DNA of 64,000 nt from Trueperaceae bacterium. Its GTDB lineage: Bacteria > Deinococcota > Deinococci > Deinococcales > Trueperaceae. Under the pieces are notes generated by a model that made no database searches, had not been told where the DNA came from, and saw only the letters and a list, made by a program, of their open reading frames with translations. This document shows, piece after piece, positions 1 through 64,000 of the stretch (position 1 is the stretch's first letter; each line of letters starts with the position of its first letter). Both the position numbers and the translations under genes were made by a program. The stretch lies in contig JAXHMC010000031.1 in NCBI GenBank assembly GCA_034521635.1, positions 62,677 through 126,676 on the forward strand, read 5' to 3'.

Positions 1-399
1 GACGGCAACGCCCTCACCGCGCTCGCCCTAGACCCCGAACGCGACCAGGAAGCGGTCGACGCACTACGCGCGGCGGTTCCCGACATGACCGAACAGCACG
101 CCGACACCCCGCAGCAGGCGCTCGCGGCGATAGGCCGCTCCTGTCACGTCGTGTCGGCCCGGCTCCACGGTCTAATTTTAGGGGCGGTCGCCGAGCGCCC
201 GTTAACCGGCCTGGTCTACGATCCGAAGGTGGCGGCGTTTCTCGGCGCGCTAGGCCGACCGGCCTACGAAGCCCCGTTCGACCTCGGCGCCCTGCTGCGC
301 GACGTGCGGGTCAGCGAACCGCTCGACAGCCACGCACTTACGGCGCTGCACCGCCACGCCGAAGACGGTATCGACTGGCTGCTCCGCACGCTTGTCTAG
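1..399 (+). CDS. 3' fragment of a gene running in from upstream of the window; C-terminal region resembles a polysaccharide pyruvyl transferase (CsaB/PS_pyruv_trans-like)
   Basis: Frame 1 is open from nt 1 to the stop at 399. Motifs SARLHGLILGA and YDPKVAAFLGALG resemble the C-terminus of the pyruvyl-transferase family. The ORF track only reports it from the internal Met at 85. Confidence 0.4.
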   Translation, partial: DGNALTALALDPERDQEAVDALRAAVPDMTEQHADTPQQALAAIGRSCHVVSARLHGLILGAVAERPLTGLVYDPKVAAFLGALGRPAYEAPFDLGALLRDVRVSEPLDSHALTALHRHAEDGIDWLLRTLV

Positions 400-939
400 C
401 ACGAGGCGGTAGCTTCCGAACCCGCGAACGTCACCCGCCGACATCATCTCCCGACATCATTTCCCCGCATCACCCGTCGATATCATCCTATCTACTGGAA
501 TCGTCTACCTACGACGACCTCGCTGGCCGTCACGTATCCGCTACGTGCGCTGTCCGGGACGCTAATACTAAGCTGACTTTGATACGTCACGTCGACCCTG
601 CTGGATAGAAAGCGTTCTGCGGCGCACGTGTTGTGGTGAATACGGGTTCTGGTGGCGGTGCTACGATTTGGATGAATGGACTGGCTCGTGTGGTGACGTA
701 AGCGAGTCGGGATGGTATGACGAGTGACGCTCACGAAGCACCGGAACTCCGGCTCGAGCCCTCCCTCTACCCCACAAACCACGTGACCTATCGCCAAAGA
801 CATCTACCCGACATCCGGCGAGCCGATTCGTGTCTAGAGTGTGTCGGGGCGCCCCCTGCGGCTACTGCTGGGTCACTACCGTGCCGCGCTTCCTATCTCT
901 GTCTCATAGCCACTGCGTAAACTCGGCACTAGGAGCTGT

Positions 940-1839
940 GTGACGACGATGCCGAAAACCCCCCCACAACACGATTCGGTCGCTCGGCAGCCGCGCTGTC
1001 TGCTGCGGGTGTCGCTGTTGATCGCCTTGTTGGGCGCGGGCGCGTTAGCGGCGCAGGTGGGCGCGCCCCAGACCGGACGGCCCGAAACCAGGTCGTTTGG
1101 AGAGATGGAGCAGTTGCTCGCGCAGGGGTTTTACGCGCTCGCGGCGCAGGTCGAGGGGCCGAGGCTCGTCGAGAGCTTTCCCGAAGCGGCGGAGGCACAC
1201 TATCTGTACGCGCGGGCGCTCTACCTGACTGGCGACGTCGCGACGGCGCAGGCCGAACTCGACGTGGCGACGGCGCTAAAGGGTGGGGTAGCGGCGCGTT
1301 ACGAGCAGCTCGCCGGTCTGTTGGCGGCGGCGCGGGGCGAGAGGGCGGCGGCGCAGGCGCATCTGCGGGCGGCGTGGGGGCTCGAGCCCTCCTCCTACTC
1401 TATCGCGATGGATTTGGGCCGGGTCGCGTGGCAGGCGGGCGATTACGACACGGCGCTCGCGGCGTACCGGGCGGCGGCAGACACCGAGGTTGGCTCGAGC
1501 CAACCCTGGCCGCTCCTTAACGGGGCGCGGCTGCTGCTCTACCAAGGCCGTCCGCAGAGCGCGATCGATCTGCTAGAACAGACCCTCGACCTACTCGACG
1601 CGACCGCCCTCGACACGACCTCTCTCGACACGACCTCGGGCGACGCCGCCGCGCAGAGCCCCGCACTCCCGTCGCCCGCCTACACCGAAGCGTTTTACCG
1701 TCTCGGTCAGGCCTACGAAGCGCTCGGCGATCTCGAACAGGCCCGCTCGAACTACGAGGCGGCGAGCTTCGCCGACCCGACCTACGAACCCGCCCGCACC
1801 GCCCGCGAACGCCTGACGCCGGGCCCGTCCCGGCCCTAG
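940..1839 (+). CDS. Secreted tetratricopeptide-repeat (TPR) protein
   Basis: N-terminal hydrophobic signal-like segment (LLRVSLLIALLGAGALAAQ). Ala/Leu/Tyr-rich helical repeats typical of TPR (AHYLYARALYLTGD, AFYRLGQAYEALGD). Confidence 0.55.
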   Translation: MTTMPKTPPQHDSVARQPRCLLRVSLLIALLGAGALAAQVGAPQTGRPETRSFGEMEQLLAQGFYALAAQVEGPRLVESFPEAAEAHYLYARALYLTGDVATAQAELDVATALKGGVAARYEQLAGLLAAARGERAAAQAHLRAAWGLEPSSYSIAMDLGRVAWQAGDYDTALAAYRAAADTEVGSSQPWPLLNGARLLLYQGRPQSAIDLLEQTLDLLDATALDTTSLDTTSGDAAAQSPALPSPAYTEAFYRLGQAYEALGDLEQARSNYEAASFADPTYEPARTARERLTPGPSRP

Positions 1840-2053
1840 GCTCGGCGTTGCAGACCCGAATGCCCGAGCGTACACGTATGCGCCTCCGAAGACGGGAGTG
1901 TAAGCGTTAACACGCTTTGTAACGACAAAATGACGGACGATCTATGATGGACTTTGAGACTGACCGCGCGAACGCCGTAACGCGTTCGGCGAACACCCGA
2001 CACCCTCGTCGCGACCTCGCGACAGGACAGATTGCAGAAAGGATGGTTTTACG

Positions 2054-2725
2054 TTGAGCGTCTCCGACGACACAACCGCTGTCCACAACGCGCTCGACAT
2101 CGTTCCGAGCACGCTCGCCCACGCGCCGAGGCGGCTCGAGCCCGGTGAAATTCTCTACGACGCGGGCCGCGAGGCGAGTTCGCTCTACGTGGTCTCGTCG
2201 GGCGTGCTTAAAGCGATCGTACCGACCTCGCTCGGACGCGACCGGATCGCCGACCTCTACGGTCCCGGCGACGTGTTGGGGGTCGCCGCTGTAGAAGGGG
2301 GCGAGCACGCCGAAACGGTGGTTACGGTGCACACCGCGACCCTTATCCCGCTAGACCCGCAACAGGCGATGAACGACCGCAAACTGCGCCGCTATATCTT
2401 TAGAAGCTTTTCGCGCCAGTTGCGCCGCAGCCGCGAAGCGATCGACGACGCCGAACTCCCGGTCGGGGCGCGTGTGACCCGCACCTTTTTACGGCTTAGC
2501 CGCCGCTTCGGCCAGCGCGCCGAAGACCACGACGGGGTGCGGCTACCGCTCGCGCTCACCCACGAAGACCTCGCCTCGCTCACCGGCAGTTCGCGCGTGA
2601 CCATCACCCGGATCTTAGGCGAGCTGCGCAACAACGGGACGATTTCGGGGACGCGGGGGATCTACATCGTCGATATCAAGGCGTTAGAAGCGGCGACCGA
2701 CGAGTACGTGATGCAGGTTATCTAG
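2054..2725 (+). CDS. Crp/Fnr-family transcriptional regulator
   Basis: cNMP-binding-like beta-roll region (ILYDAGREASSLYVVSSGVLKAI) followed by a C-terminal HTH (LTHEDLASLTGSSRVTITRILGELRNNG). TTG start in the ORF track. Confidence 0.8.
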   Translation: MSVSDDTTAVHNALDIVPSTLAHAPRRLEPGEILYDAGREASSLYVVSSGVLKAIVPTSLGRDRIADLYGPGDVLGVAAVEGGEHAETVVTVHTATLIPLDPQQAMNDRKLRRYIFRSFSRQLRRSREAIDDAELPVGARVTRTFLRLSRRFGQRAEDHDGVRLPLALTHEDLASLTGSSRVTITRILGELRNNGTISGTRGIYIVDIKALEAATDEYVMQVI

Positions 2726-2966: not shown

Positions 2967-3569
2967 TTATTCGGAGAGCGCGACGAGGTCGGGCCGCAGG
3001 AAGCGGAGTGCGGCGCGCGACCAGGGCTCGAGCCCCCCCAGCCTCGCGGCGACCTCGGCCCACGGCACCAGTTTCCCCGCGAGTGTGTCGGTTTCGCGCA
3101 CCCGCACCGGGTCGGGCGTCCGTACCCGGTAGAGGATACCGGTATGCACCCGCTCGACCGGTGTCTCGCTCCGGTGGATAAGCCCGAGCGCCTCGGCGAA
3201 AAACGCCCCGATAACGAGTTCTTCGCGCAGTTCGCGCGCGAGCCCCGCCTCGATCACGTCGCGGGCGTTAGGGTGTTCGCCGTCGTCGATATGTCCGCCG
3301 ATGCCGACAGACCACTGTCGCTCCAAACGCGTTTCGCGACCCCCCGCTAAGCGCTCGACCAACAACACCGCACCGCCGTGCTCGACCACCGCGTAGGGGA
3401 TAAGCTGCCGCCACGTCTCGTCGTGCTCCACCTCGTCGCGCGGGCGAAAGCTGCCGCCGTACGCGAGCTGTTCGTAGAGCGCCGCCGAGAGCGGTTGCAC
3501 GTCGGGGTGAGGGTCGGGCAACGCCGCCGCCGCGAGGCCGTAGACACGTTCGGACGTATGTTCGGACAT
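2967..3569 (-). CDS. NUDIX hydrolase
   Basis: Nudix box GGHIDDGEHPNARDVIEAGLARELREEL, matching G-x5-E-x7-REUxEExGU. Confidence 0.75.
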   Translation of the reverse strand: MSEHTSERVYGLAAAALPDPHPDVQPLSAALYEQLAYGGSFRPRDEVEHDETWRQLIPYAVVEHGGAVLLVERLAGGRETRLERQWSVGIGGHIDDGEHPNARDVIEAGLARELREELVIGAFFAEALGLIHRSETPVERVHTGILYRVRTPDPVRVRETDTLAGKLVPWAEVAARLGGLEPWSRAALRFLRPDLVALSE

Positions 3570-3838: not shown

Positions 3839-4636
3839 TTAATCCTGAAGGGCGAAGCGGATCTGGAGCGAGACGCTTACGGCGAGCTGACCGCTTTCGA
3901 CCGGCACGTCCGCCATCATCATGGCTTCGGCGCGGAAGCTCGGCATCGGGCCGCCGCCGCCGCTGGTCGCGGTAATGGTCTGGGCGGGGCCGAGGCTCGA
4001 GCCCACCAACATCGCCAACTGTTCCGCCTTGGCCCGCGCGTCTTCGACCGCGAGCGCCCGCGCCTCTTCTTCTAGCGCCGCCGCGTCGGCGAAGGTGTAG
4101 TTAAGCGCGTTCACCGCGTTCGCGCCCGCCTCGATCGCCCGGCTTAGCACCGCGCCGACCTGTTCGGTGTCGCGCACCGTCACGCGCAGCGTGTTGTCGA
4201 CGCGGTAGCTGCTGCTGCTCGGTCGGCTGCCCGAACCGTCGTAGCGCTCCTCGCGAAACAGATTGAAGTTGGTGGTCTGCAGGTCGGCCCGCTCGATACC
4301 GAGGTCGACGAGGGCGTCGATCACCGCGCGCATCTGCTCGTTCGCCGCCTCGACCGCAGCCCCCGGATCGTCGTTAAGGACGCTCACCCCGAGGTCGACC
4401 CGGGCGATCTGCGGGGCGGCGTAGACCGTTCCGGTACCGTCGACCGTCACGCTGCGCTCGGCACTCTCCTGCGCGAACGCGGCGCCGAGCGTCACCCCGA
4501 CTATTGCGACGCCGACGAGTACGTGGCGCACGAGCCTAAACGTCGCTGCTGTCTTGCCTGTGGCTGTTACTGTGGTTGTCATACGGATCTTAGCTCCTTG
4601 TTTCGACGAATATGTGCTGACGAATGGCTGACGCAA
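3839..4636 (-). CDS. SIMPL/DUF541-domain periplasmic protein (26-kDa periplasmic immunogenic protein family)
   Basis: N-terminal TM/signal segment. Overall SIMPL-domain pattern, with C-terminal ...SGQLAVSVSLQIRFAL. Confidence 0.7.
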   Translation of the reverse strand: MRQPFVSTYSSKQGAKIRMTTTVTATGKTAATFRLVRHVLVGVAIVGVTLGAAFAQESAERSVTVDGTGTVYAAPQIARVDLGVSVLNDDPGAAVEAANEQMRAVIDALVDLGIERADLQTTNFNLFREERYDGSGSRPSSSSYRVDNTLRVTVRDTEQVGAVLSRAIEAGANAVNALNYTFADAAALEEEARALAVEDARAKAEQLAMLVGSSLGPAQTITATSGGGGPMPSFRAEAMMMADVPVESGQLAVSVSLQIRFALQD

Positions 4637-4892: not shown

Positions 4893-5459
4893 CTATTTGG
4901 CGGCGATAGCGTCTAGCACCCGCCGTGCCTGCCAGAGGTGTCGCCGTTCGTGGGCGAGCACCAGCGAAAACGCTTCGTAGAGATCGAGGCGTAGCCAGCG
5001 GGTGAGGGGCGAGTGCAGCGTGATGCGGTTTAGGTCGAGGCCGTCGGCCTTCGCGAGCCGCTCGTGTAGCGCCGCTTGCAGATCGTCGAACTCGCGCCGA
5101 ATCTCGTCCGGGTCGAGGTCGGGTGCGGGTGTCCAGCGGCCCGGCGCACCGACGCGCATCCGCACCGGCGGCTCGGTGAGCCGGATAAAGGTGCCGCCGA
5201 TAAGCCCGTAGCGAAACGGCCCCGACCCGCAGATGTCTTGTTCGTGGCCGCGTGCGGTCGCCTTGTCGATCTCGGCGAGATAGTCGTGCCCGGTCACGTT
5301 AAGGTGGGTGAGGCACTCGCTCACCGACCACTGCCCCGGTGCCGGTCGCTCTAAAAACTCGGCGTCCGAGAGGGGAGCGATCAGGGCTCGAGCCTCGTCC
5401 CAAATCTCGTTTAGCTGCCGCGCGAGCTGCTCGGTCGTCGTCGTCGCGATCACCGTCAC
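4893..5459 (-). CDS. DinB/YfiT-like (DinB_2) metal-dependent hydrolase family protein
   Basis: WSVSECLTHL...HDYL and C-terminal LAHERRHLWQARRVL, matching the His-triad pattern of the DinB_2 family. Confidence 0.65.
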   Translation of the reverse strand: MTVIATTTTEQLARQLNEIWDEARALIAPLSDAEFLERPAPGQWSVSECLTHLNVTGHDYLAEIDKATARGHEQDICGSGPFRYGLIGGTFIRLTEPPVRMRVGAPGRWTPAPDLDPDEIRREFDDLQAALHERLAKADGLDLNRITLHSPLTRWLRLDLYEAFSLVLAHERRHLWQARRVLDAIAAK

Positions 5460-5521: not shown

Positions 5522-7099
5522 TTAGTCGAACAGCGACGCAACGTCTACCTCGCCCTGGGGCTCGACGTAGCCGGTATCCATCTGCGCGAGCTGGAGCCGC
5601 CCGCTGTGGTCGTCGTTGACGCCGTGCCAGTAGGTGTAGGCTTCTAGCACCCAGATACCGCTCTCGCGGGTGCCGTTCCCCGACCCCTTGACGCCGCCGA
5701 AGGGCATGTGCGCCTCGGCGCCGGAGGTGGTGTTGTTGATCGAGCTCATACCCGCTTCGATCTGGTCTTTGAACTGGTGGGCGTACTCGCGGCTGTTGGT
5801 GTAGATCGCGCTCGACAGCCCGTAATCGACCGCGTTGGCGGTGTCTAGCGCGTCCTGGATGCCGTTGACGCGCACCAGGTTGATGGTCGGCCCGAAGATC
5901 TCCTGCTGGAACTGCCGCATCTCTGGGGTCACGTTTTCCCAGATGGTCGGCCAGCCGTAAAAGGCCGCGTCCGGGTCGCCCTCGAAACCGGTCGGCTTGC
6001 TGTCGGCGGTAATGCGCCCGTTGCCGTACAGGAGCGAGGCGCCGTCTTCGCGGCCCCAGTCGTAGTGCTCGAGCCACTTGTCGAAAAACCGCTCGTTGAT
6101 AAACGGCCCGTACAGCACGTCCTCGACCTGGCCGGGGTCGCCGATCCGCAGGTCGCGCGTCGCCGCTAAGAAGCGCTCTTTAAATTCGTCGTAGATAGGC
6201 TCGTCGATAATAAAGTTGCCCGCACTCGTACAGCGCTGACCGCCGGTGCCGAACGCCGAAAAGATCGCCCCGCTCACCGCGTTGTCTAGGTCGGCGTCGC
6301 GCATGATGATGAGCGGGTTTTTGCCGCCTAGTTCTAGGGTCGGGTGGAGCAGGTTACGCCCCGCGATCGCCCCGATCGTGCGCCCGACCGCCGTCGAGCC
6401 GGTAAAGGCGAACTTGTTAAGCAGTCCCTCGTCCATCATCTCGACCAGATACTGCCCCGCTGCGTCGCCGCCGCCCCCAAACACCAGGTTGACCACGCCC
6501 GCCGGGATGCCCGCCTCGTCGATCAGCTTGGCGAACGCGTAGGCGATGGCCGGCGCGTCTTCGGACGGCTTCCAGACGATGGTGTTGCCGGTAACGAGCG
6601 CCGGGATAATCTTCCAGCTCGGCACCGCCATCGGAAAGTTGCCCGCCGTGACCATGCCGACCACGCCGAGCGGACGCCGGTAGGTGGTGAGCTCTTTGTT
6701 CGGCATTTCCGACGGCACGGTCTGCCCGTAGAGCCGCCGCCCCTCGGACTGGAAGAAGTGACAGGTATCGACGGCCTCCTGCACCTCGCCCCGCGCCTCC
6801 TTGAGCGTCTTTCCCATCTCGCGGCTTAGCAGCCGGCTCAGCGACTCTTTTTCGCGCTCTATGGCTACGCCGAGGCTACCGATAAGCTGACCGCGAACCG
6901 GGGCCGGCACCTTCGACCAGCTTTTAAACGCGCTCTGCGCCGCCTCGCACGCCTCGCGGACCTGTGCCTTGCTCGCTTCGGGAAAGACGCCTAAGACGTC
7001 GCTGTGGTTGCTAGAATTGCGCGACTCGAAGGTGCTGTCGCTCGTGACCTCGCGGCCACCGATAAGGTTGGGGTACTGACGTGTTGCTGTCTGGGTCAT
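5522..7099 (-). CDS. NAD(P)-dependent aldehyde dehydrogenase
   Basis: ALDH motifs FTGSTAVGRTI, catalytic ELGGKNP and Cys motif GQRCTS. 525 aa. Confidence 0.9.
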   Translation of the reverse strand: MTQTATRQYPNLIGGREVTSDSTFESRNSSNHSDVLGVFPEASKAQVREACEAAQSAFKSWSKVPAPVRGQLIGSLGVAIEREKESLSRLLSREMGKTLKEARGEVQEAVDTCHFFQSEGRRLYGQTVPSEMPNKELTTYRRPLGVVGMVTAGNFPMAVPSWKIIPALVTGNTIVWKPSEDAPAIAYAFAKLIDEAGIPAGVVNLVFGGGGDAAGQYLVEMMDEGLLNKFAFTGSTAVGRTIGAIAGRNLLHPTLELGGKNPLIIMRDADLDNAVSGAIFSAFGTGGQRCTSAGNFIIDEPIYDEFKERFLAATRDLRIGDPGQVEDVLYGPFINERFFDKWLEHYDWGREDGASLLYGNGRITADSKPTGFEGDPDAAFYGWPTIWENVTPEMRQFQQEIFGPTINLVRVNGIQDALDTANAVDYGLSSAIYTNSREYAHQFKDQIEAGMSSINNTTSGAEAHMPFGGVKGSGNGTRESGIWVLEAYTYWHGVNDDHSGRLQLAQMDTGYVEPQGEVDVASLFD

Positions 7100-17355: not shown

Positions 17356-17565
17356 AGTGCGTCCGCATGTGTCTAGCCCTCGGGGCAGCGACGCGCTTGT
17401 GACGATCTAGCCTTTATTCGTCTCGGCGCGGATCTTAGCGGGTGCTTCTCCTGATGCGTTAAGCCTGAAGGCTCGAGCCCCACCAACCCTCGTCATCCGA
17501 GAGAATCACCGCCTACACCGCTAGCGACGCTATTTGTGGCTTAGAAAGGACGCGAAACACCCTAC

Positions 17566-47798: not shown

Positions 47799-48015
47799 GA
47801 TGGACCTCCTCTAAAGCAGCAAAAGACGGTCTGCCGTAAGAGGCTACTGCACTCTAGCTGCCTTTGATGGCTCGAGCCTACACCTTCAAATGCTCTGTAG
47901 ACACGGGAAGAATGTCCCCCGACCACCAGACAGGACGGAGCGGGCTGCCCGTCTGACAAACATAAAAAACCCCCTCACATGTTCGCGAGGGGGATAGAGA
48001 TTGACAGGGTTTAGC

Positions 48016-54265: not shown

Positions 54266-54706
54266 TTAGCTGTTTGCTTCGTCGATTTCGACGAGCTCGA
54301 GCTCGAACATCAGGTCTTTGCCAGCGAGCGGATGGTTGGCGTCTAGCGTTACTGTTTCGTCGGAGACGTCGGTCACCGTGACCGGTACCGCTTGGCCGTC
54401 CGGCTGCTGGATCTGTAGCTGCTGACCGATTTCGACCTCGATGTTTTCGGGGATCTGCTCTTTAGCGACTTCGAGCACCATGTCGTCGCGGCGCTCGCCG
54501 TAGGCCTTGTCGTGCGGGATGTGGCTGGCCTTGCTCTCGCCCGGCTCCATGCCGACCACGGCCTCTTCGAAGCCCGGAATAAGCTGTCCCTGACCGATGG
54601 TAAACTCGAGCGGGTCGCGCTCGAACGACGAATCGAACTCGGTGCCGTCTTGTAGTTTGCCCCGGTAGTGGACGCGGACGGTATCGCCTTGTTTGGCTTG
54701 TGACAT
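54266..54706 (-). CDS. slyD: FKBP-type peptidyl-prolyl cis-trans isomerase, SlyD-like
   Basis: GDTVRVHYRGKLQDGTEFDSS, LIPGFEEAVVGMEPGESK. An IF-domain-like insertion and an acidic C-terminus. Confidence 0.8.
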   Translation of the reverse strand: MSQAKQGDTVRVHYRGKLQDGTEFDSSFERDPLEFTIGQGQLIPGFEEAVVGMEPGESKASHIPHDKAYGERRDDMVLEVAKEQIPENIEVEIGQQLQIQQPDGQAVPVTVTDVSDETVTLDANHPLAGKDLMFELELVEIDEANS

Positions 54707-55776: not shown

Positions 55777-58700
55777 ATGAGCCTCGCAACAGCTCGTTTC
55801 GACACGTTACGCGGCTATACGCTCCGGCGCAAGATCGGATCGGGCTCTTTTGGCGACGTCTATCTTATGGATCAGGCGCTGCTCGGGCGCGAGGTCGCGG
55901 TCAAGGTGATCTTGCCGCGCTACGCCAACGCGCCCGACTTCGTCCGGTCGTTCGAAGCCGAAGCGCAGCTCGTGGCGAGGCTCGAGCACCCCTTCATCGT
56001 CCCGCTCTACGATTTTTGGCGCGAACCGAGCGGTGCCTACCTGGTGATGCGTTACCTGCGCGGCGGCACCCTGCGCGACCTGATGGACAACAGCGACGAA
56101 CCGCTGTCGGCGGCGAGCGTCGCCGACCTGCTCGACCAGATCGCGTCGGCGCTGCACGCGGCGCACCGGCGCGGCATCGTACACCGCGACATCAAACCGA
56201 CCAACATCATGCTCGACGAGGGGCGTAACGCCTACCTCGCCGACTTCGGGATCGCCAAAGACCTGAACGACGGCTCGAGCCTCTCGCTCGACACCTTTGC
56301 CGGCAGCCCCGCCTACACCACGCCCGAACAGATCCAGGGCCGACCGGTAAGTAGCGCCTCGGACCTCTACAGCTTAGGCATTATCCTCTACGAACTGCTC
56401 ACCAAGCGCTATCCGTTCGCCCGCAACAACATCGCTGCCCTGCTCGAAGCCCACCTCGACACGCCGCTACCGGACCTCGGCGCCGAGCCTAACCCGCTCG
56501 ACGAGGTGCTCCGGCGTGCGACTGACAAAGACCCCGAACGGCGCTACCCGAGCGCCCTAGCCCTTGCGAGCGCGTTTCGGCAGGCGCTGCAACAGCAGAG
56601 CGAGCATCCCGTCACAAACAGAGTCACGAACAGAGCACCGAACAGAACCCGCCCCGACGTCGCGGTGAGCGCCACGGTAACCAACCCCTACAAGGGGCTG
56701 CGGGCGTTTGGAGAGGCCGACGCCGCCGACTTTTTCGGACGTGACGCCCTCGTCACGCGGCTGCTGCTGAAGCTCGGCGAAGACCGTCCCGAAGCGCGCT
56801 TTTTGGCGGTGGTCGGCCCGAGCGGCAGCGGTAAGTCGAGCGTGGTGCAGGCAGGTGTGTTGCCGAAGCTGCGGCGCGGTGCGGTGCCGGGGTCGGCGCA
56901 GTGGTTTGTCGTCGAGATGGTGCCCGGAAACAACCCGCTCGGCGAGCTCGAAGGGGCGCTACGGCGGATCGCGACCCGCCCGCTCGGCGACGTCGGTGCG
57001 CGGCTACTCGCGAGCGACCGGGCGCTTGCGGACATGCTCGACGACGTCCTCTACGGCCAAGACGGTGACCTGCTGCTCGTCGTCGATCAGTTCGAAGAGC
57101 TGTTTACGCAGACCGAAGACGACGTGTTGCGGCGCAGCTTTCTGGCGAACCTGCAGCGGGCGCTAACCGATGCGGACAGCCGCTTGCGGGTCATCATCAC
57201 GCTGCGGGCCGACTTTTACGACCGTCCGCTCTTAGAGCCGGGCTTCGGCAGCCTGGTGCAGCGGCGCACCGAGGCGGTCATTCCGCTAAGCGACCAAGAG
57301 TTGCAGGAGGCGATCGTGCAGCCCGCCGAGCGGGTCGGGTTAGGGCTCGAGCCCGGTCTTATCTCGGTGGTGGTACAAGACATCCGCGACGAACCGGGTG
57401 CGCTGCCGCTGCTGCAGTACGCGCTGACCGAGCTGTTCGAGCAGCGCGACGGTACGCTTCTGACCCACCGCGCCTACCGTCGTAACGGCGGCGTACGCGG
57501 GGCGCTCGCCCGGCGGGCCGAGGCGATTTACAACGAGGCGAACAGCCGCGAACAGGCCGCGATCCGGCAGCTCTTTTTACGTCTGGTGAGCTTCGGGAGC
57601 GAGGGCCAGCTGACCCGGCGCCGCGCTTTGCGGGCCGAACTCGTCGCGTCGGCGCAGTCCGGTCGTGCGGGCGACGCTGACGCGCCAGACGTGACGCGCC
57701 AGGTGCTCGAGCGCTACGGGAGCTACCGGCTGCTCACCTTCGACGTCGACCCGCTCAGCCGCGAACCGACCGCCGAGATCGCGCACGAGGCGCTGCTCCG
57801 CAACTGGAGCCGGCTCGGTGTTTGGCTCGAAGAGAATCGCGAAGCGCTGCACGTCCAGCGGCGTCTGTCGGTCCTGACGCGCGAGTGGATTGGTGCCGGG
57901 CGCGACCCGAGCTTTCTGTCGCGCGGCGCCCAGCTTGCGCAGCTCGAGCGCTGGTGCCGCGACCACGACCTGACCCCGAACGACGACGAGTGCGCCTACA
58001 TCGAGGCGAGTGTTCGCGCCCGCCACGTCCGCGACGCACAGGAGGACGCCCAGCGCCGCCGCGAACAGACGTTGCGGTCGCGCTCGCGCTGGTTTTTGCG
58101 GGGGCTGGTCGGGGTGATGGCGGTCGCGATGCTCGTGTCGCTAAGCTTGTTGCGAAGTTCGCAGCAGGCCGAGCAGATCGCCGCCGACCTTGCCACGCGG
58201 GCGCAGAGCCTCGCGCTGACCAACGGCGCCCAGCTCGCGATCCGCGACAACGACCTCGACCAGGCCATCGCTTTGGCGCTAAGCGCGCTCGAAGTCGGCG
58301 GGCCGATCCCGCAGGTCGAACGGATGCTCTCCGAAGCGGCCTACGCGCCCGGTACCGAGCGGCGTTTTGAGTTTGGTGCCGGGCCGACCTGGTCGGTTGT
58401 AAGCCACCCGACCCGGCCCGAAGCGTTTGTTGCGACCGAGCGCGGCGGCGTGGTGCGGTGGCGGCTCGAGCCCTCCACCCCCGGCTTAGACACGTTAGAC
58501 ACAAACGACACCGTAGACACAAATGATACCGTCCTCGAACGCCTCCCCCACAGCGGCCCGGTCTACAGCCTCGCCCTAAGCCCCGACGGCAGCAGCCTCG
58601 CGACCGGTAGCGCTGACGGCACGGTGCGGATCTGGCAGCTGTCACGGCGTTCTGCCGACGACCTGTCTGGTGACCTGTCTGGCGACATGACCGGTGACCC

Positions 58701-60327
58701 GTTAGGCGAGCCCGCCTCGGTAGCGCGGCTGTTCGGGCGTCACGACGGCGCGGTACGCAGCCTCGCTTTTAGCCCCGACGGACGCAGCCTCGTGTCGGGC
58801 GGCGACGACGCGACCATCTGGGTCTGGAGCGTTCGCGACGGCGCAGAAGTGGCGCGTCTGGATCAGCACGGGACGCCGGTCTACGCGCTGCACTACGGCC
58901 CTAACGGACAACGGCTGGTTAGCGGCGACGCAGACGGTCAGCTGATCGTCTGGAGCACCGAACGTTGGGAGCCGCTCGCGCAGCGGCGGGGTCACGACGG
59001 CGAAATCTGGGCGCTCGACATCAGCAGCGACGGGTTGCAGCTTCTCTCCGCTGCCGCCGACCGGCAGGTGCGGGTGTGGCGGCTCGAGCCCCTCCTGCGC
59101 CTGAGCGAGTTCGGCGGTCACACCGACCAGGTCTACAGCGTCCGCTTCGGCCCGGACGGTACGAGCGCGTTTTCGGGGTCGCAAGACACCAGCGTGCTGT
59201 GGTGGAGCATCGACAACGGCGAGATCCGCCACCGCTTCGACGCTCACAGCGGCGGCGTCCACAGCCTCGACCTAGACGTCGACGGGCGGTTGCTGTCGGC
59301 CTCCTACGACGGCACGGTGCGGCGCTGGGCGCTCGAAAGCGGCGTCGCCGAAACGGTCTGGAGTGGCCACAGCGAGCGGATTCGCAGCGTCGCGTTTAGC
59401 GCTGACGGCAGCCGCGCCCTCTCTACCTCCGACGACACCCGGCTCCTCCTCTGGGACACCGACACCGGCAGGCCGATCCACCGCCTAGACGGACACACCG
59501 CGCGCGTTCGCAGCGTCGCTTTCGCTCCAGACGGTAACCACGCCCTCTCCGCCGCCGACGACCGGACGCTGATCTGGTGGGATCTAAACACCGGCACGCC
59601 GGTCTACACCCTGACCGGCCACCGCGAACAGGTCTACAGCGTCGCGCTTAGCCCCGACGGCAGCCGCGCGGTGTCGGGATCTTCGGACGGCGACGCGATC
59701 CTCTGGGATCTTACGACCGGCACCGAACTGCGCCGCTTTAGCGATCATGTCGGTTGGGTTCGCGGTACCGCCTACAGCCCCGACGGGGCCACCGTGTTGA
59801 CCGGTAGCGGTGAGGGACGCGCGCTTAGTGTCTGGGACGTAGACAGCGGCGAACGGCTGCACCACCTGCGCGGCCATAGCGACTGGCTTTGGGAGGTCGC
59901 CTACAGCCCCGACGGACGCTACGCGGTGTCGGGCGCCTCGGACAACAATGTGCTGGTCTGGGATCTCGTCGCTGGCAGCCTCGTAGCGCGTCTGCGCGGC
60001 CACAGCGCGCCGGTCTACGACGTAACTTTTAGCCCCGACGGCGACTACGTGGTGTCGGCGGCAGGAGACGGTACGGTGCGGGTCTGGGAGGTGGCGCGGG
60101 CCGAAGAGGTGCGGCGCTTTCGGACCGGATCGGCGGTGTGGGGGGTCGCGGTCAGCCCCGACGGCGAGACGGTGCTGTCCGGCGGCGACGACGGGGTGGT
60201 GCAGGTGTGGCGGCTCGAGCCCTCCCTCGACAACCTCGTGAGCTGGACGTACGCCAACCGCTACATCCGCCCGCTGACCTGCGACGAGCAGCGGCGCTAC
60301 AGCCTCCCCGAAACGTCCTGTTCCTAA
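55777..60327 (+). CDS. Multidomain signalling protein: Ser/Thr protein kinase + STAND P-loop NTPase + TM segment + C-terminal WD40 beta-propeller repeats
   Basis: Kinase subdomains (GSGSFGDVY, VAVK, HRDIKPTN, DFG, APE). Walker A VVGPSGSGKSS. TM helix WFLRGLVGVMAVAMLVSLSLL. At least 12 WD40 repeats (…GSxDGTVRVW…). 1516 aa. Confidence 0.85.
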   Translation: MSLATARFDTLRGYTLRRKIGSGSFGDVYLMDQALLGREVAVKVILPRYANAPDFVRSFEAEAQLVARLEHPFIVPLYDFWREPSGAYLVMRYLRGGTLRDLMDNSDEPLSAASVADLLDQIASALHAAHRRGIVHRDIKPTNIMLDEGRNAYLADFGIAKDLNDGSSLSLDTFAGSPAYTTPEQIQGRPVSSASDLYSLGIILYELLTKRYPFARNNIAALLEAHLDTPLPDLGAEPNPLDEVLRRATDKDPERRYPSALALASAFRQALQQQSEHPVTNRVTNRAPNRTRPDVAVSATVTNPYKGLRAFGEADAADFFGRDALVTRLLLKLGEDRPEARFLAVVGPSGSGKSSVVQAGVLPKLRRGAVPGSAQWFVVEMVPGNNPLGELEGALRRIATRPLGDVGARLLASDRALADMLDDVLYGQDGDLLLVVDQFEELFTQTEDDVLRRSFLANLQRALTDADSRLRVIITLRADFYDRPLLEPGFGSLVQRRTEAVIPLSDQELQEAIVQPAERVGLGLEPGLISVVVQDIRDEPGALPLLQYALTELFEQRDGTLLTHRAYRRNGGVRGALARRAEAIYNEANSREQAAIRQLFLRLVSFGSEGQLTRRRALRAELVASAQSGRAGDADAPDVTRQVLERYGSYRLLTFDVDPLSREPTAEIAHEALLRNWSRLGVWLEENREALHVQRRLSVLTREWIGAGRDPSFLSRGAQLAQLERWCRDHDLTPNDDECAYIEASVRARHVRDAQEDAQRRREQTLRSRSRWFLRGLVGVMAVAMLVSLSLLRSSQQAEQIAADLATRAQSLALTNGAQLAIRDNDLDQAIALALSALEVGGPIPQVERMLSEAAYAPGTERRFEFGAGPTWSVVSHPTRPEAFVATERGGVVRWRLEPSTPGLDTLDTNDTVDTNDTVLERLPHSGPVYSLALSPDGSSLATGSADGTVRIWQLSRRSADDLSGDLSGDMTGDPLGEPASVARLFGRHDGAVRSLAFSPDGRSLVSGGDDATIWVWSVRDGAEVARLDQHGTPVYALHYGPNGQRLVSGDADGQLIVWSTERWEPLAQRRGHDGEIWALDISSDGLQLLSAAADRQVRVWRLEPLLRLSEFGGHTDQVYSVRFGPDGTSAFSGSQDTSVLWWSIDNGEIRHRFDAHSGGVHSLDLDVDGRLLSASYDGTVRRWALESGVAETVWSGHSERIRSVAFSADGSRALSTSDDTRLLLWDTDTGRPIHRLDGHTARVRSVAFAPDGNHALSAADDRTLIWWDLNTGTPVYTLTGHREQVYSVALSPDGSRAVSGSSDGDAILWDLTTGTELRRFSDHVGWVRGTAYSPDGATVLTGSGEGRALSVWDVDSGERLHHLRGHSDWLWEVAYSPDGRYAVSGASDNNVLVWDLVAGSLVARLRGHSAPVYDVTFSPDGDYVVSAAGDGTVRVWEVARAEEVRRFRTGSAVWGVAVSPDGETVLSGGDDGVVQVWRLEPSLDNLVSWTYANRYIRPLTCDEQRRYSLPETSCS

Positions 60328-60429: not shown

Positions 60430-62185
60430 CTAGTCCTCTTTCTGCGTGACCCGTAACACCCGCAACCGGTTGAGCGCGGCGGCGACCTCGAACCGGCGCG
60501 GCCTCGCGAGGTTGCCCGGGTGCTGGCCCTGAAACGGGCTTACCGTCTCGACCCCCTCGCGGTCGAAACGTGCGTCGAGGTCGTCCATCAGCTCGCGCAG
60601 CGTCAGGCTATCTTTCGCTAACTTTTTTCCTAACAGTTCGAGTGCGTCGGCGACGGCGGCGGTCTGGCTCCGGTCGACGAGCTGTTCTAGGTAACGCAGG
60701 TCGAGGTCGCTGTGGCCGTACTGGATCTGCTCGGCCCCGCGCACCCTGACCTTCCCCTTCCGGCTCGTCGCTCTAGGGTCGAGGCTGCCCGCGTCGGGCC
60801 CACGCTCTCGCAACCGCCCGATATCGCCGCCCGTTTCGCGCTGCCGCGTACTCTGCTGCTCGGTCGCGATCCGTTTCGCCTCGGCGGTCACGTCGACCGG
60901 CTGGTAGTCGCGCATCATCACCACCACGTCGGCGACCTCGAAATAGTCGCCGCTGCCGCCCATGACGAGCACCGTCGACACGCCCCGGTCGCGGTAGAGC
61001 GCTTCGATCTGGTCTAGAAACGGCGTGATCGGCTCGTGCTCTTTGGCCACCAACGCCTGCATCCGGGCGTCGCGCACCATAAAGTTGGTCGCGCAGGTGT
61101 CTTCGTCGAGCAGCAGCCCGCTCGCGCCGACTTCGAGCGCCTCGACGATGTTGGCGGCCTGGCTGGTGCTGCCGCTGGCGTTGTCGGAGCTAAACGAACG
61201 GGTGTCGCGTCCGCTCGGCAGCGACCCGATAAAGGGCCGGATGTCGACCGCTGTGACGCTGCGCCCGTCTTCGCTGCGGATCTTGACGAGGTCGGGATCG
61301 GCGACGACGTACTCGCGCCCGTCGCCGGGGATGTGCGGATAGACGCCCCGCTCGAGCCCCGCGAGCAGCGTCGACTTGCCGTGGTAGCCGCCGCCCACGA
61401 TCAGCGTCACGCCGCGCGGCACCCCCATCCCCGTGATCGTCTGGCGCCGCTCGCCCGCCCACACGAACGCGTTAGGCAGGTCGATATCGACGCGTAAGCT
61501 CTCGGGCGATCGAAACGCTACCGCCTCGTTCTGAAGACAGGGGCCGGTCGCTCGCGCCGCTCTCGCGTGGCAGCACCGAGCCGTCGGCGACGAACGCGAC
61601 GAGATCGCGCTCCCGGAGCTGTGCGCGGATATGTTCCTGGTTTTCGGCGCACGCGACGAACGCCTCGACTTCGCCCTGCGGCAGCGTCGCCCACTGCAGC
61701 GTCTCGCTAACGACCATCGGCAACTCTTCGGTGAGCATCGCGCGGGCCTGGTAGCCGAGCACGGTGCGGCCCCGAGCGGGCAGGCCGGCTTCGAGACGGA
61801 GTTCGATGCCGTTGTCGCTAATACGACAGGCGGTCCGCTCTAGAATCTCCTGTCCGCCCGCGTCGATGAGCAGGGCGCCGCTCTTACCCGACCCCCGGTG
61901 GCCCTGGGCGTGTTCGGCCATGCGGGCTCGAGCCCGCCGCGCTAAGTAGTCTTCGAGCGCGACGCGCCGCACCGGCGTCTGGTAGAGCTGTTTCGGGATC
62001 TCGGCCCGGTCGTGGTCGACGTAGGCCCGCAGCTTCGAGGGCGCCGCGAACGGGTCGCCCTGGACGTGGTCGACGTAGAGCCTAAAAAAGTCGTAGTCGT
62101 AGTGACCGCGAATGTCGTTGTAGGCCTTGTAGCCTCTGCCGTCGATGCGGCCTAGTGTGTCGTGCAGATCCTGGTCGGTCGGCAT
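60430..62185 (-). pseudogene. PF09818-type predicted ABC-class ATPase, split by a frameshift into N- (61472-62185) and C- (60430-61464) parts
   Basis: The N-part carries the family's N-terminal signature ...YKAYNDIRGHYDYDFFRLYVDHVQGDPFAAPSKLR. The C-part has TGMGVPRGVTLIVGGGYHGKSTLL...DASGSTSQAANIVEALE...LLLDEDTCATNFMVRD. The two ORFs are in different frames, overlap by 9 nt, and together equal one full-length family member. This could be a sequencing error rather than a real frameshift. Confidence 0.55.
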
Positions 62186-62270: not shown

Positions 62271-63299
62271 CTAGGCGGACGTACCGGACGTGTCGGGCGA
62301 TTCGCGGCGTTCGGGGTTCGGTTCGGGCGGGGCGTCGTTAAGGGCCGCCCGGCGTTCGGGGGGGGTGTCGGTAGAGGTGGGGGGCTCGAGCCCCGACAAC
62401 ATCTCCCGCAAGCCGCCGACCGCTCCGAGAAACCCGCTCGCTTCAAACGGCATGTAGACGACCTTGTTGTCCTTGCCCGACACCATCTCTTTAAGCGTGT
62501 CGAGATAACGGACGTTGATCAGGTACCGGCTCGGATCGTGGCCCGACGCCTCGCGTAACATCGTAATCGCGTCGGCTTCGGCCCGGGCGGTGCTAAGCCG
62601 CGCCTGCGAGTCACCTTCGGAGTCGAGAATCTTCGATTTTTTCCGGGCTTCGGCGCGAATCAGCGTCGCCTTGCTCTCTCGGTCGGCCCGAATCTGCTGC
62701 TCTAGCGCCTCCTGAATCTCCTGGGGTGGGCTGATGTTTTGCAGCTCGATCCGGTTCACCTGCACGCCCCACTTCTCTGCCGCCTCGTTCAGAATCTGCC
62801 GTAGCCGCGTGTTGATCTTGTCGCGTGACACGAGCGTTTCGTCGAGGTCGAGTTCGCCGATCACGTTGCGCAGGTTGGTCTGGGTTAGCGTGCTCAGCGC
62901 GTCGGGCAGGTTTTCGATCTCGTAGATCGCCTTCTTCGGATCGACCACCCGAAAGTAGAGCACCGCGTCGATGCCGGTGTTGACGTTGTCTTTGGTGATC
63001 ACGCTCTGCTTGGTAAAGCTGTAGACCTGTTCGCGCAGATCGATGCGGCTCGTCATCACCGTGACAAACTTGTTGGTCGCCGGGTCTTTGCGGCGCCACA
63101 ACATCTCTCGCGGCTGGTCGATCAGGGGTACGAGCACGTTGACGCCGCTGCTAAGCGTTTTGCGGTAGCGTCCGAAGCGCTCGATGAGAACCGTCTCGGC
63201 CTGTTTGACGACGAACACGCCGAGCATCAGAAACGACACGAGTAGAAACACGAGCAGCCCCGACCCTGTCGCGATTAGCACGATCACTAACGTCGGCAT
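62271..63299 (-). CDS. SPFH/band-7 (stomatin/prohibitin-like) membrane protein
   Basis: N-terminal TM (MPTLVIVLIATGSGLLVFLLVSFLML), then SPFH core (VNTGIDAVLYFRVVDPKKAIY...). Start at the ATG at 63299; the ORF-track N-terminal extension to 63578 is an artefact. Confidence 0.8.
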   Translation of the reverse strand: MPTLVIVLIATGSGLLVFLLVSFLMLGVFVVKQAETVLIERFGRYRKTLSSGVNVLVPLIDQPREMLWRRKDPATNKFVTVMTSRIDLREQVYSFTKQSVITKDNVNTGIDAVLYFRVVDPKKAIYEIENLPDALSTLTQTNLRNVIGELDLDETLVSRDKINTRLRQILNEAAEKWGVQVNRIELQNISPPQEIQEALEQQIRADRESKATLIRAEARKKSKILDSEGDSQARLSTARAEADAITMLREASGHDPSRYLINVRYLDTLKEMVSGKDNKVVYMPFEASGFLGAVGGLREMLSGLEPPTSTDTPPERRAALNDAPPEPNPERRESPDTSGTSA

Positions 63300-63579
63300 C
63301 GATCCGCCGCCTGACGATCTGCTGTCTGCCGATATACAACCACAGTAACGCTCATAAATCTTAGTGTAGCAGGCCGCTCGGTTAGGCGACTGAGGGGCGT
63401 CCAAAACGAAATCTAAGACAAAACATCTAAGACAAAACAAGACAAAAGAGCAGCGACGATTCGCGTCGTCATTCTGGATAACGCTGCAACCATCACCGTC
63501 GGCAGATACCGGGCAGAGACGGGTGGTGATGCTTTGTGGAGAGTCTGTTTGGGGCTCGAGCACCAAACTCACCGACATT

Positions 63580-63607
63580 AAAAAAGAGAGGGGTTTGTCC
63601 CCTCTCT
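63580..63607 (-). terminator. Intrinsic terminator downstream of the H+-PPase gene
   Basis: Stem AGAGAGGGG/CCCCTCTCT with loop TTTGT. The minus-strand transcript is followed by a U-run (plus-strand AAAAA at 63581-63585). Confidence 0.55.
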
Positions 63608-63647
63608 AGGTCGTGTGTGGTCGTATGGTCGAATCTAACTGCCGGGT

Positions 63648-64000
63648 CTAGAAGATAAGCAGGCCACCCGTCGAGGCGATGATCGCCGCGAAGATCAGCG
63701 CGATCGTGTTGATCACCTTGATCAGCGGGTTGATCGAGGGGCCGGCGGTGTCCTTGTAGGGGTCGCCGACCGTGTCACCGACGATCGCGGCTTCGTGAGC
63801 GTCGCTGCCCTTGCCGCCGTGGTTGCCGTCTTCGATGTACTTCTTAGCGTTGTCCCAGGCGCCGCCGCCGTTCGACATCATCAGCGCCATCATTAGGCCG
63901 CTACCGATCACGCCGATCAGCAGGCCGCCGAGCGCGAGCGGGCCGAACAGAAAGCCGACGATAAGCGGTGCGACGACCGCCATAATGCCCGGCAGCGCCA
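63648..64000 (-). CDS. hppA: Membrane-bound H+-translocating pyrophosphatase, C-terminal end (gene continues beyond the window)
   Basis: C-terminal signature ...[48 protein letters not shown].., typical of V-type H+-PPases. Confidence 0.85.

Follow-up and report, generated by a model that had tools for sequence, protein, structure and literature searches.

A highly iterated palindrome with a CTCGAG core in a subclade of the Trueperaceae

A 64,000-nucleotide stretch from a Trueperaceae bacterium (Deinococcota; GenBank assembly GCA_034521635.1, contig JAXHMC010000031.1, positions 62,677 to 126,676 of the forward strand), hereafter the window, contains 62 copies of the palindromic 8-mer GCTCGAGC, which is built on CTCGAG and often extended to the 10-mer GGCTCGAGCC or the 12-mer GGGCTCGAGCCC. 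This word, (GG)GCTCGAGC(CC), is a highly iterated palindrome (HIP) in the operational sense, sharing most of the properties by which HIPs are recognized: it is short, GC-rich and the top oligomer of its DNA, its number of copies per Mb is that of a HIP, and the copies are dispersed, spread by substitution and conserved. A preliminary description of the window had likened it to HIP1 of cyanobacteria, as a highly iterated palindrome acting on DNA; its independence of reading frame, presence in intergenic DNA, substitutional origin, conservation and clade-wide occurrence bear this out. By analogy with the cyanobacterial systems, we consider it moderately probable that a DNA-transaction system with sequence specificity drives this DNA-level HIP of a Trueperaceae subclade; the likeliest candidate is a solitary methyltransferase acting with biased repair and/or self-marking. 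All statistics on the window (G+C 62.5%) come from this 64-kb sample, to which about 160 kb of loci from relatives were added. Genes were called from G+C content at third codon positions (GC3) with four manual corrections, and about 30 of them were checked by Pfam scans or against the annotation of the best relative, a metagenome-assembled genome (MAG; GCA_963992665.1, with an AroA 81% identical to that of the window), hereafter the sister MAG.

Abundance of the word in the window

Exact counting gives 62 8-mers (0.97 per kb, 969 per Mb), 35 10-mers and 16 12-mers, where the preliminary description had estimated about 55 8-mers and at least 16 12-mers by eye. GCTCGAGC is the commonest 8-mer of the window (124 counts on both strands), and 62 of the 72 CTCGAG sites are embedded in it. 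Base composition predicts 2.1 8-mers and 0.02 12-mers, in agreement with the earlier figures of about 2 and 0.03. Dinucleotide-preserving shuffles yield 4.08 8-mers (largest value 8) and 0.02 12-mers. The order-3 Markov comparison that had been suggested, run here on the window, predicts 8.6 8-mers per strand and about 0.035 12-mers, and the over-representation holds; orders above 3 are uninformative because they are dominated by sub-words of GCTCGAGC itself. The strictest null is a synonymous-codon reshuffle that keeps all protein sequences and the codon usage: against it, 53 coding 8-mers are observed where 7.1±2.6 are expected (maximum 16 in 1000 reshuffles), 27 coding 10-mers where 1.6±1.2 are expected and 13 coding 12-mers where 0.2 are expected. 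The observed-to-expected ratio of the 8-mer is 30 by composition, 15 by dinucleotide shuffle, 7 by the order-3 Markov model and 7.5 by synonymous shuffle (coding copies only).

Fifty-three copies (85%) are coding and nine lie in intergenic spacers, several of which had been noticed earlier; intergenic occurrence is proportional to the intergenic share of the window. The copies fall in 29 of the 52 called coding sequences (CDSs), slightly fewer than the at least 30 first reckoned. The claim that these genes are unrelated stands: the 23 of the 29 that have a Pfam scan or sister MAG annotation belong to unrelated families, including TPR, Crp, SIMPL, DinB, Cas3, PPC, GT2, ABC, AMP-binding, SufE, EPSP synthase, cytidylate kinase, ADH, molybdopterin oxidoreductase, GNAT, FKBP, kinase-nSTAND1-WD40, SPFH and others.

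Distribution among relatives and flanking preferences

AroA and the acyl-CoA ligase of the window match proteins of an NCBI "Trueperaceae bacterium" MAG at 100% identity. The nearest genomes in GTDB are MAGs of Trueperaceae, Truepera or Deinococci, and a metagenome scan with the acyl-CoA ligase of the window returned nothing above 46% identity. Relatives were compared as 21-kb loci around aroA, of which L001-L007 are the seven closest; L161 and L162 are contigs of the sister MAG. CTCGAG is the top palindromic hexamer by observed/expected ratio in all seven of L001-L007 (G+C 38-64%), at 0.9-3.3 per kb or 5.6-9.5 times the expectation from composition. The sister MAG, too, is enriched in it, and GCTCGAGC is the commonest 8-mer in L161. 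In 14 Trueperaceae loci of high G+C (67-75%) the hexamer does not rise above what the order-3 Markov model predicts, and two Planctomycetota loci show no enrichment either. A neighbor-joining tree of aroA places the window, the sister MAG and L001-L007 in one clade.

Examination of the flanks reveals a graded preference. Counted per half-site in the window, G occupies position -1 in 92% of cases, -2 in 64%, -3 in 58% and -4 in 42%, against a genomic G frequency of 31%, and the copies share no sequence beyond about ±3 nt. In the window 86% of CTCGAG sites are full GCTCGAGC sites; the sister MAG (L161 and L162) is similar, with G at -1 in 88% and 82% full sites, and in L001-L007 these values are 47-82% and 15-65%. 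Only the window and the sister MAG have G above 55% at position -2. The core shared across the clade is CTCGAG, and the graded G...C extension to 10-12 nt is specific to the lineage of the window. CTCGAG without G...C flanks is rarer than expected in the window (10 copies against an estimate of roughly 38), as though these flanks had been added in that lineage to CTCGAG sites already present. Hairpin- or cruciform-templated extension was considered for the flanks and rejected: complementarity beyond ±2 is not significant against permuted left and right flanks (p=0.11; p=0.02 if positions ±1-2 are included), and the apparent long palindromes arise because the left consensus is G-rich and the right consensus C-rich.

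Another palindrome shows the opposite trend. CGGCCG has no copy in the window, where 60 are expected from composition and 73 from the order-3 Markov model, and CCGCGG (3 versus 63 expected) and GCCGGC (17 versus 72) are also strongly depleted. CGGCCG is nearly absent (0-2 copies) from L161, L162, L001-L003 and L005-L007; L004 has 16 copies, and the high-GC Trueperaceae have 27-64 per locus, roughly the composition level. This depletion looks like restriction-site avoidance.

Reading frames, codons and peptides

Forty-one of the 53 coding 8-mers (77%) are read as G|CTC|GAG|C, giving Leu-Glu, with six in the Ala-Arg-Ala and six in the Gly-Ser-Ser frame; the earlier tally of 37 Leu-Glu, 6 Gly-Ser-Ser and 6 Ala-Arg-Ala among 49 was close. 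It had been read as a strong codon-frame preference. The excess of the Leu-Glu frame is real, but it is not a special property of the word, as codon usage alone predicts 70%: codon frequencies give expectations of 2.3, 0.08 and 0.92 copies in the Leu-Glu, Ala-Arg-Ala and Gly-Ser-Ser frames, so that the fold-enrichments are 18, 75 and 6.5, respectively. The 10-mer is observed 17, 5 and 5 times in the three frames against 0.07, 0.009 and 0.10 expected from codon usage, with eight more copies in the non-coding 19% of the window. Since ten of the twelve off-frame and eight of the nine intergenic copies are 10- or 12-mers, compared with only 17 of the 41 in the Leu-Glu frame, a few members of the Leu-Glu class are probably chance products of codon usage. 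In the genome of the window, the truer unit may be the 10-mer.

In the window, Leu is most often encoded by CTC and Glu by GAG, and Leu-Glu dipeptides number 127 against 107 expected (1.19-fold). In 47 of the 49 in-frame CTCGAG sites the preceding codon ends in G (49% for other CTC codons), and in 42 the next base is C (33% for other GAG codons). Taken together, the CDSs of the window display an extreme codon-context bias in which NNG|GNN junctions are avoided, and almost forbidden for many pairs (observed versus expected: CTG|GAC 1 versus 28.8, CTG|GGC 1 versus 20.7, CTG|GAG 0 versus 16, GCG|GAG 6 versus 29, GTG|GAA 0 versus 12, CGG|GAA 0 versus 9.9), and G|C and C|G junctions are favored (CTG|CTC 60 versus 21, CCC|GAA 44 versus 8). 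Leu is therefore encoded by CTC before G and by CTG before C, A or T. The arrangement xxG|CTC|GAG|Cxx uses three favored junctions; in-frame CTC|GAG occurs 49 times against 25 expected (1.9-fold), compared with 1.4-fold for other NNC|GAG pairs. Adjusted for this context, 5.5-7.7 8-mers are expected in the Leu-Glu frame, in which 41 are observed. In the Ala-Arg-Ala frame the word calls for rare codons, and GCT|CGA is found 7 times where 0.7 would be expected. Among the relatives, L006 (38% G+C) uses CTC for 6% of its Leu codons, yet CTC|GAG encodes 11 of its 54 Leu-Glu pairs (1.1 expected), and eight more CTCGAG copies lie in other frames; in L002, CTC|GAG encodes 8 of 16 Leu-Glu pairs (0.7 expected).

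The word is selected or generated as DNA and not as a peptide, because neither codon usage, codon context nor protein sequence accounts for its enrichment, which extends to all three frames as well as intergenic DNA. The recurrent (G/R)-L-E-P is the plain translation of xGG CTC GAG CCx, and the dominance of Leu-Glu is due to common CTC and GAG codons together with favored G|C and C|G junctions.

Origin and persistence of copies

Codon alignments of aroA, cmk, sufE and a neighboring gene showed most copies at species-specific positions and a minority that are shared. The copies of the window lie at variable protein positions, often with amino-acid changes: in aroA, G-S-V/I becomes G-S-S at the site of the copy, and in sufE, G-L-S-P or G-L-G-P becomes G-L-E-P; a C-terminal GLE(P) tail of SufE is found only in the clade of the window. 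The word occurs where the protein tolerates it, namely at variable positions (AroA, SufE, Cmk) and at termini (SufE, SPFH/Band7). The comparison of orthologs that the preliminary description had called for resolves GLEP into codon substitutions, as with GLSP/GLGP in sufE, and not insertions.

About 11 kb of the window can be aligned with the sister MAG at 72-87% nucleotide identity. Exact retention was observed for 7 of 12 window copies (p=0.014) and 7 of 7 sister copies (p=6e-5), against a background of 25% for all 8-mers and likewise 25% for GC-matched 8-mers. Within the aligned blocks, the sister MAG departs from five window-specific 8-mers by one to several substitutions and no indels; a sixth, at the C-terminus of SufE, falls in a poorly aligned stretch just beyond them. 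These comparisons, on a small sample, indicate that the word spreads by substitution rather than insertion and that copies, once present, appear to outlast the neighboring sequence. Dispersed repeats of the repetitive extragenic palindromic (REP), bacterial interspersed mosaic element (BIME) or miniature inverted-repeat transposable element (MITE) kinds were ruled out by the lack of an extended unit beyond ±3 nt, the 85% of copies within CDSs and the substitutional origin.

At one position the sister MAG has more copies than the window. Positions 6457-6488 of L162 hold two GGCTCGAGCC 24 nt apart, both in the Ala-Arg-Ala frame, versus a single one at 38996-39003 of the window; the extra, upstream copy sits in a 24-nt insertion relative to the window. 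The pair could reflect a small duplication or a deletion between copies, reminiscent of the HIP1-flanked deletion reported in smtB.

Spacing and the CRISPR-cas island

Regular spacing was sought in the window outside the CRISPR (clustered regularly interspaced short palindromic repeats)-cas island, and the gaps there resemble those of random placement (coefficient of variation 0.87 versus 0.98 for random). The island itself is poor in copies. The type I-C effector cas genes (10476-16161) contain two copies where 6.2 are expected (P=0.054), and together with 1.44 kb of spacers the count is 2 against 7.7 (P=0.017); an initial value of p=0.0016 included the CRISPR array itself and weakened when the repeats were excluded. 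This scarcity fits a word that accumulates with residence time, on modest evidence.

The array (7364-10358) comprises 42 copies of the 37-nt repeat GTTTCAATCCTCAGCCGCCCCGAAGGACGGCTGCAAC and 41 spacers of 32-38 nt. Adjoining it on the minus strand are cas7 (10476-11372), cas8c/csd1 (11372-13195), cas5d (13195-13905) and cas3 (13924-16161); between cas7 and the array there is no open reading frame (ORF) for cas1, cas2 or cas4. GC3 of the cas genes is atypically low at 0.61-0.76, compared with about 0.8 elsewhere in the window, and the island may have been horizontally acquired. A comparison of the spacers with motif-bearing contigs of IMG/VR yielded only chance 14-nt matches.

Comparison with known systems

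HIP1, GCGATCGC, is likewise an 8-nt GC-rich perfect palindrome, so the earlier statement that the present word has a longer core than HIP1 does not hold; what sets the word apart is its graded G...C extension to 10-12 nt. Both have a 4-nt palindromic center, GATC in HIP1 and TCGA here, and TCGA, as GATC, is a classic methyltransferase target. The hosts differ, being cyanobacteria for HIP1 and Trueperaceae here, and so do the cores (CGATCG in HIP1, CTCGAG here): CGATCG is not enriched in the window (36 copies versus 44 expected). HIP1, too, occupies non-coding DNA as well as every frame of coding sequence, and it has likewise spread by substitution without indels. Its deviant copies are biased to the outer bases, whereas outer-base one-off variants are not enriched here, and its cognate methyltransferases are known (DmtA and a CGATCG-specific enzyme). 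HIP1 is also better conserved between genomes than control octamers (PMC5861425). In density the two are alike, with 300-2700 per Mb for HIP1 (PMC4390886) and 969 per Mb for the present word, or about 1 per kb. The composition-based ratio of 30 is below the 55-228 of typical HIP1 and within the 24-50 of the "weak" or alternate HIPs (PMC4390886).

The alternate HIPs of cyanobacteria (GGGATCCC, TCGATCGA, GGCGCC-based, rCCGGy and CAGGCCTG) are similarly lineage-specific iterated palindromes, and GGGATCCC, with 1160-1345 per Mb and a ratio of 39-50, is comparable to the word described here. Among them, related genomes share a core and differ in the flanks, as do L001-L007 with their loose CTCGAG and the window and sister MAG with their strict GCTCGAGC. 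None of them contains CTCGAG, all are cyanobacterial, and each is tied to a cognate methyltransferase in the same genome. In the literature searched, which left most subscription-journal papers outside, we found no CTCGAG-based iterated palindrome and no HIP in Trueperaceae or Deinococcota. Thus, the phenomenon is known, and what is new is the core sequence, the phylum and the drift of specificity within a family.

Two further systems bear comparison. The DNA uptake sequences (DUS) of Neisseria and uptake signal sequences (USS) of Pasteurellaceae occur at about 1 per kb, mostly in genes in tolerated frames, are scarce in foreign islands and are shared by relatives. In being hyper-abundant, genic, island-poor and common to related species they resemble the present word; they differ in lacking palindromic symmetry and in having a known reader, the receptor ComP or an uptake machinery. 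The Dcm/Vsr system acting on CCWGG in E. coli, where a methyltransferase target is raised by biased T:G repair, is the simplest known methylation route to enrichment of a word. Very short patch repair by Dcm/Vsr produces a modest enrichment with depletion of the deamination product, unlike the 7- to 30-fold enrichment here (several hundred-fold for the 12-mer), which is accompanied by no such depletion.

Proposed cause and alternatives

In the mechanism that we favor, a solitary methyltransferase acting on CTCGAG or its TCGA center would recognize the word, and the methylation state would bias mismatch or short-patch repair toward the full palindrome, as in Elhai's ratchet; in addition or instead, the methylated word might mark DNA as "self" in natural transformation and recombination. 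Such a system could both create and retain sites at about 1 per kb. The methyltransferase is proposed by analogy, because HIP1 co-occurs with cognate methyltransferases, as do the alternate cyanobacterial HIPs (PMC4390886). Elhai's repair model predicts saturation near one site per kb (PMC4390886), which the window density of 0.97 per kb matches. Furthermore, CTCGAG-specific 5-methylcytosine methylation is documented in Halorubrum (PMC8112702), HIP1 enhances transformation (10.1101/2024.09.10.611283), and HIP1 abundance correlates phylogenetically with several Type IV secretion system proteins (10.64898/2026.06.24.733823).

Several observations weigh against this mechanism or temper it. No methyltransferase, Vsr or uptake gene came to light in the roughly 0.5 Mb covered (the window, the sister contigs and the loci of 21 relatives), where the only scan, by regular expressions for the catalytic motifs of methyltransferases in long ORFs, returned weak hits, unchecked against Pfam. 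In the window, variants one mismatch away from the 8-mer are neither enriched nor depleted, and GCTTGAGC/GCTCAAGC, the products of deamination, show no depletion there (3 versus 2.5-3 expected, at low power), so that no signature of very-short-patch repair is visible. To our knowledge, Deinococcota have MutS and MutL but no MutH; a classical methyl-directed ratchet would thus be without a known strand-nicking component, and the same objection has been raised for cyanobacteria. At 10-12 bp the graded preference extends beyond what is usual for a Type II methyltransferase site, and a dimeric DNA-binding protein would match it equally well. Only 12 and 7 sites enter the conservation test, and the depletion in the cas genes alone is marginal.

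Among other explanations, the word might be a DNA uptake or self-recognition sequence of the DUS/USS kind, bound by competence or recombination machinery and accumulating by molecular drive. The density of about 1 per kb, the codon-compatible coding frames, the conservation, the scarcity in the CRISPR-cas island and the sharing within a clade all match DUS and USS, natural competence is known in the Deinococcus-Thermus group, and the links of HIP1 to transformation and Type IV secretion point the same way. Known uptake sequences are, however, asymmetric and not palindromic, and a flank preference that varies between species of the clade would weaken exchange between them. We regard this explanation, which overlaps the methyltransferase proposal, as possible but unlikely. 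Somewhat less likely still is that the word is the binding site of an abundant dimeric protein, be it nucleoid-associated, chromosome-organizing or repair-loading, and that a 10-12-bp palindrome is kept for chromosome architecture. The outward fading of the G preference is footprint-like and longer than usual for a methyltransferase site, the sites are conserved above background, and selection with a structural role has been argued for HIP1, which is reported to be quasi-periodic at 10-90 kb along the chromosome (Xu et al. 2018, PMC5861425). Against such a role, the spacing outside the CRISPR-cas island is like random, and the relatives keep the CTCGAG core with loose flanks, a better fit to a 6-bp recognizer. 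The uptake-signal and architectural-protein models are compatible with the methylation model and not mutually exclusive with it.

The two remaining explanations are contradicted by the present data. It might be a by-product of translation-level forces, that is, preferred CTC and GAG codons, favored junctions or a selected (G/R)LEP peptide, as the predominance of the Leu-Glu frame, the rank of the two codons and a context bias favoring exactly the three junctions of xxG|CTC|GAG|Cxx would suggest. The observed counts nevertheless exceed both the context-adjusted and the synonymous-shuffle expectations severalfold, the Ala-Arg-Ala copies are built from rare codons, nine 8-mers and eight 10-mers are intergenic, the core is enriched about 10-fold in relatives with CTC as a rare codon, and Leu-Glu itself is barely in excess; we consider such an origin highly improbable. 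Least credible of all is a mobile mini-element, linker or assembly artefact, with the copies as inserted units or remnants of XhoI linkers. CTCGAG is indeed the XhoI cloning site, and the extra copy in the sister MAG lies within a 24-nt insertion. The copies, though, share nothing past about ±3 nt and lie in frame within conserved genes, the five window-specific ones align without indels to orthologous sequence, and the same enrichment is seen in at least nine separately deposited MAGs.

Implications

We see about an even chance that a HIP evolved independently outside the cyanobacteria in this Trueperaceae subclade, over a G+C range of 38-64%, with the preferred word drifting within the family, first from CTCGAG to GCTCGAGC and then to GGGCTCGAGCCC. 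More than thirty years have passed since the description of HIP1, and its origin and function are still debated between a repair ratchet (PMC4390886), chromosome architecture (PMC5861425) and a transformation signal. The HIPs in the literature that we searched are all cyanobacterial, and therefore lineage history and mechanism are inseparable there. An independent HIP in Deinococcota with an unrelated core would show convergence: HIPs would then be a general phenomenon arising from a DNA-transaction system (a methyltransferase with repair or uptake) that co-evolves with a genomic word. A clade with enriched and non-enriched relatives and several complete chromosomes, among them OZ243913.1, OZ243956.1 and CBDCDB010000008.1, would provide a second independent system for the HIP1 puzzle, and the contrast of enriched and non-enriched genomes within one family would be a natural one for finding the responsible genes, by phylogenetic profiling together with methylome calling. 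The proposal predicts methylation at CTCGAG/TCGA, which can be checked in existing long-read MAG data; judging by their accession and contig names, several relatives with OZ and CBDC accessions appear to be long-read assemblies. The word also gives these genomes a strong compositional mark, of use in binning and in the recognition of foreign DNA. As it puts Gly/Arg-Leu-Glu-Pro, Ala-Arg-Ala or Gly-Ser-Ser into variable parts of proteins, it could be mistaken for a shared protein motif.

Copies in the window

In the following, start coordinates are those of the 8-mer core. From the beginning of the window to the CRISPR array, copies comprise an intergenic 10-mer GGCTCGAGCC at 752..759; a 12-mer at 1380..1387 (Leu-Glu frame, GLEP) and a 10-mer at 1493..1500 (Gly-Ser-Ser frame) in the gene for a TPR protein (940-1839, plus strand); a 10-mer at 2134..2141 (Leu-Glu, RLEP) in that for a Crp-family regulator (2054-2725, plus); a 12-mer at 3026..3033 (Leu-Glu) in a hypothetical CDS (2967-3569, minus); a 10-mer at 3995..4002 (Gly-Ser-Ser) in a SIMPL/DUF541 CDS (3839-4636, minus); a 10-mer at 5386..5393 (Ala-Arg-Ala) in a DinB-family CDS (4893-5459, minus); and an 8-mer at 6067..6074 (Leu-Glu) in a CDS (5522-7099, minus) that is aldehyde dehydrogenase-like from its translation. 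The only two copies of the CRISPR-cas island are 10-mers in cas3 (minus strand), at 14893..14900 (Gly-Ser-Ser) and 15407..15414 (Ala-Arg-Ala).

Beyond the island there is an intergenic 10-mer at 17471..17478 and a 12-mer at 17691..17698 (Leu-Glu, GLEPS) in a hypothetical CDS (17566-18186, plus). The PPC-repeat protein (18556-20457, plus) contains four copies, all in the Leu-Glu frame, at 19101, 19788 (a 12-mer), 20034 and 20130 (19101..20137); some may be duplicates of one another, as three read LEP(S/G) at similar repeat positions. A phosphonate-binding-like CDS (20759-21571, plus) has an 8-mer at 21085 and a 12-mer at 21181 (21085..21188; Leu-Glu), with an intergenic 12-mer at 21578..21585, 7 nt past its stop. 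An 8-mer at 23228..23235 (Leu-Glu) lies in a CDS (23082-24296, minus) whose translation reads as an SQD1-like epimerase, and a 10-mer at 24312 and a 12-mer at 24398 (24312..24405) are intergenic. Two 8-mers (24708..25361) fall in a GT2 glycosyltransferase (24517-25725, minus), that at 24708 in the Leu-Glu frame and kept in the sister MAG, that at 25354 in the Gly-Ser-Ser frame and window-specific. Single 8-mers occur at 28162..28169 in an ABC ATPase (27893-28702, minus) and at 31459..31466 in a Suc_Fer-like CDS (31163-32173, minus), both in the Leu-Glu frame, and at 33711..33718 in a periplasmic binding protein (33299-34243, minus) in the Ala-Arg-Ala frame.

The acyl-CoA ligase (34885-36849, plus) has four copies (35109..36584): a 12-mer at 35109 in the Leu-Glu frame, kept in the sister MAG, and others at 35263 (Ala-Arg-Ala), 35436 (Leu-Glu) and 36577 (Ala-Arg-Ala), the last of which corresponds to GCCCGAGC in the sister MAG. 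An 8-mer at 37074..37081 (Leu-Glu) is located in a CDS (36988-38331, plus) that is acyl-CoA dehydrogenase-like from its translation, and a 12-mer at 38996..39003 (Ala-Arg-Ala), kept in the sister MAG, in a small CDS (38729-39043, plus). A 10-mer at 39945 and an 8-mer at 40005 (39945..40012) lie between divergent genes. Of three 8-mers in the Leu-Glu frame of an ABC exporter (40304-42136, plus), at 40762, 41395 and 42010 (40762..42017), only that at 41395 is exact in the sister MAG. SufE (42610-43032, minus) has two 12-mers (42615..42766): the one at 42615 encodes the C-terminal GLEP*, confirming the ...VGLEP* ending noticed earlier, and the one at 42759 encodes the GLEP that corresponds to GLSP/GLGP in relatives. 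AroA (43201-44487, plus) has a 10-mer at 44003..44010 in the Gly-Ser-Ser frame, kept in the sister MAG at a variable position where the nearest relatives have S-V, S-I or S-Y and more distant ones mostly T-R or S-R. In Cmk (44707-45426, plus), a 10-mer at 44970 (RLEPS) and an 8-mer at 45306 (QLEPP) (44970..45313) are both kept in the sister MAG.

Further on, two 8-mers (46497..47419, Leu-Glu) lie in a Zn-dependent dehydrogenase (46444-47466, plus), a 10-mer at 47870..47877 is intergenic, and a molybdopterin oxidoreductase (51258-53276, plus) has a 12-mer at 52064 (GLEPS) and an 8-mer at 52466 (52064..52473). A GNAT acetyltransferase (53331-54131, minus) carries a 12-mer at 53759..53766 and an FKBP (54266-54706, minus) an 8-mer at 54295..54302, both in the Leu-Glu frame. 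The CDS at 55777-60327 (plus) encodes a protein of 1516 aa with a Ser/Thr kinase domain, an nSTAND1 NTPase and 14 WD40 blades. It has eight copies, not the five first noted, at 55980, 56273, 57345 (a 12-mer), 57705, 57942, 58464, 59082 and 60213 (55980..60220). The last three read WRLEP at the Trp position that ends a WD40 blade, as had been observed, but in blades 1, 5 and 14 and not in successive ones. These three blades end in the identical 16-nt GTGGCGGCTCGAGCCC, and the others have WDL/WDV-type endings. Toward the end of the window, an 8-mer at 61350..61357 (Leu-Glu) lies in an ABC_ATPase P-loop CDS (60430-61464, minus), an intergenic 12-mer at 61926..61933 is inside the 16-nt palindrome GCGGGCTCGAGCCCGC, and an SPFH/Band7 CDS (62271-63578, minus) has a 12-mer at 62384 near its C-terminus (GLEPP) and an 8-mer at 63554 near its N-terminus (62384..63561).

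The word in IMG/VR contigs

Among the 2.9 million contigs of IMG/VR, only 79 DNA stretches contain GGGGCTCGAGCCCC. A few of these carry 11-14 GCTCGAGC per 5-14 kb together with depletion of CGGCCG (1-2 versus 8-20 expected), namely L175 and L179 (IMGVR_UViG_3300024283_000005), L178 (IMGVR_UViG_3300024323_000027) and L211 (IMGVR_UViG_3300046836_000076). This double signature, rich in the word and poor in CGGCCG, is that of the clade of the window. L178 encodes a contractile-tail module with sheath, tape measure, baseplate hub and wedge, so that a prophage, tailocin or injection system of some host also bears the word. A different pattern is seen in the 14-kb contig L202 (IMGVR_UViG_3300010051_000183), which has 78 CTCGAG (5.5 per kb) against 4.8 expected, most commonly in the contexts CCTCGAGG and CCTCGAGC (20 each), and no GTCGAC against 4.8 expected; it may represent another CTCGAG-based iterated palindrome with other flanks.

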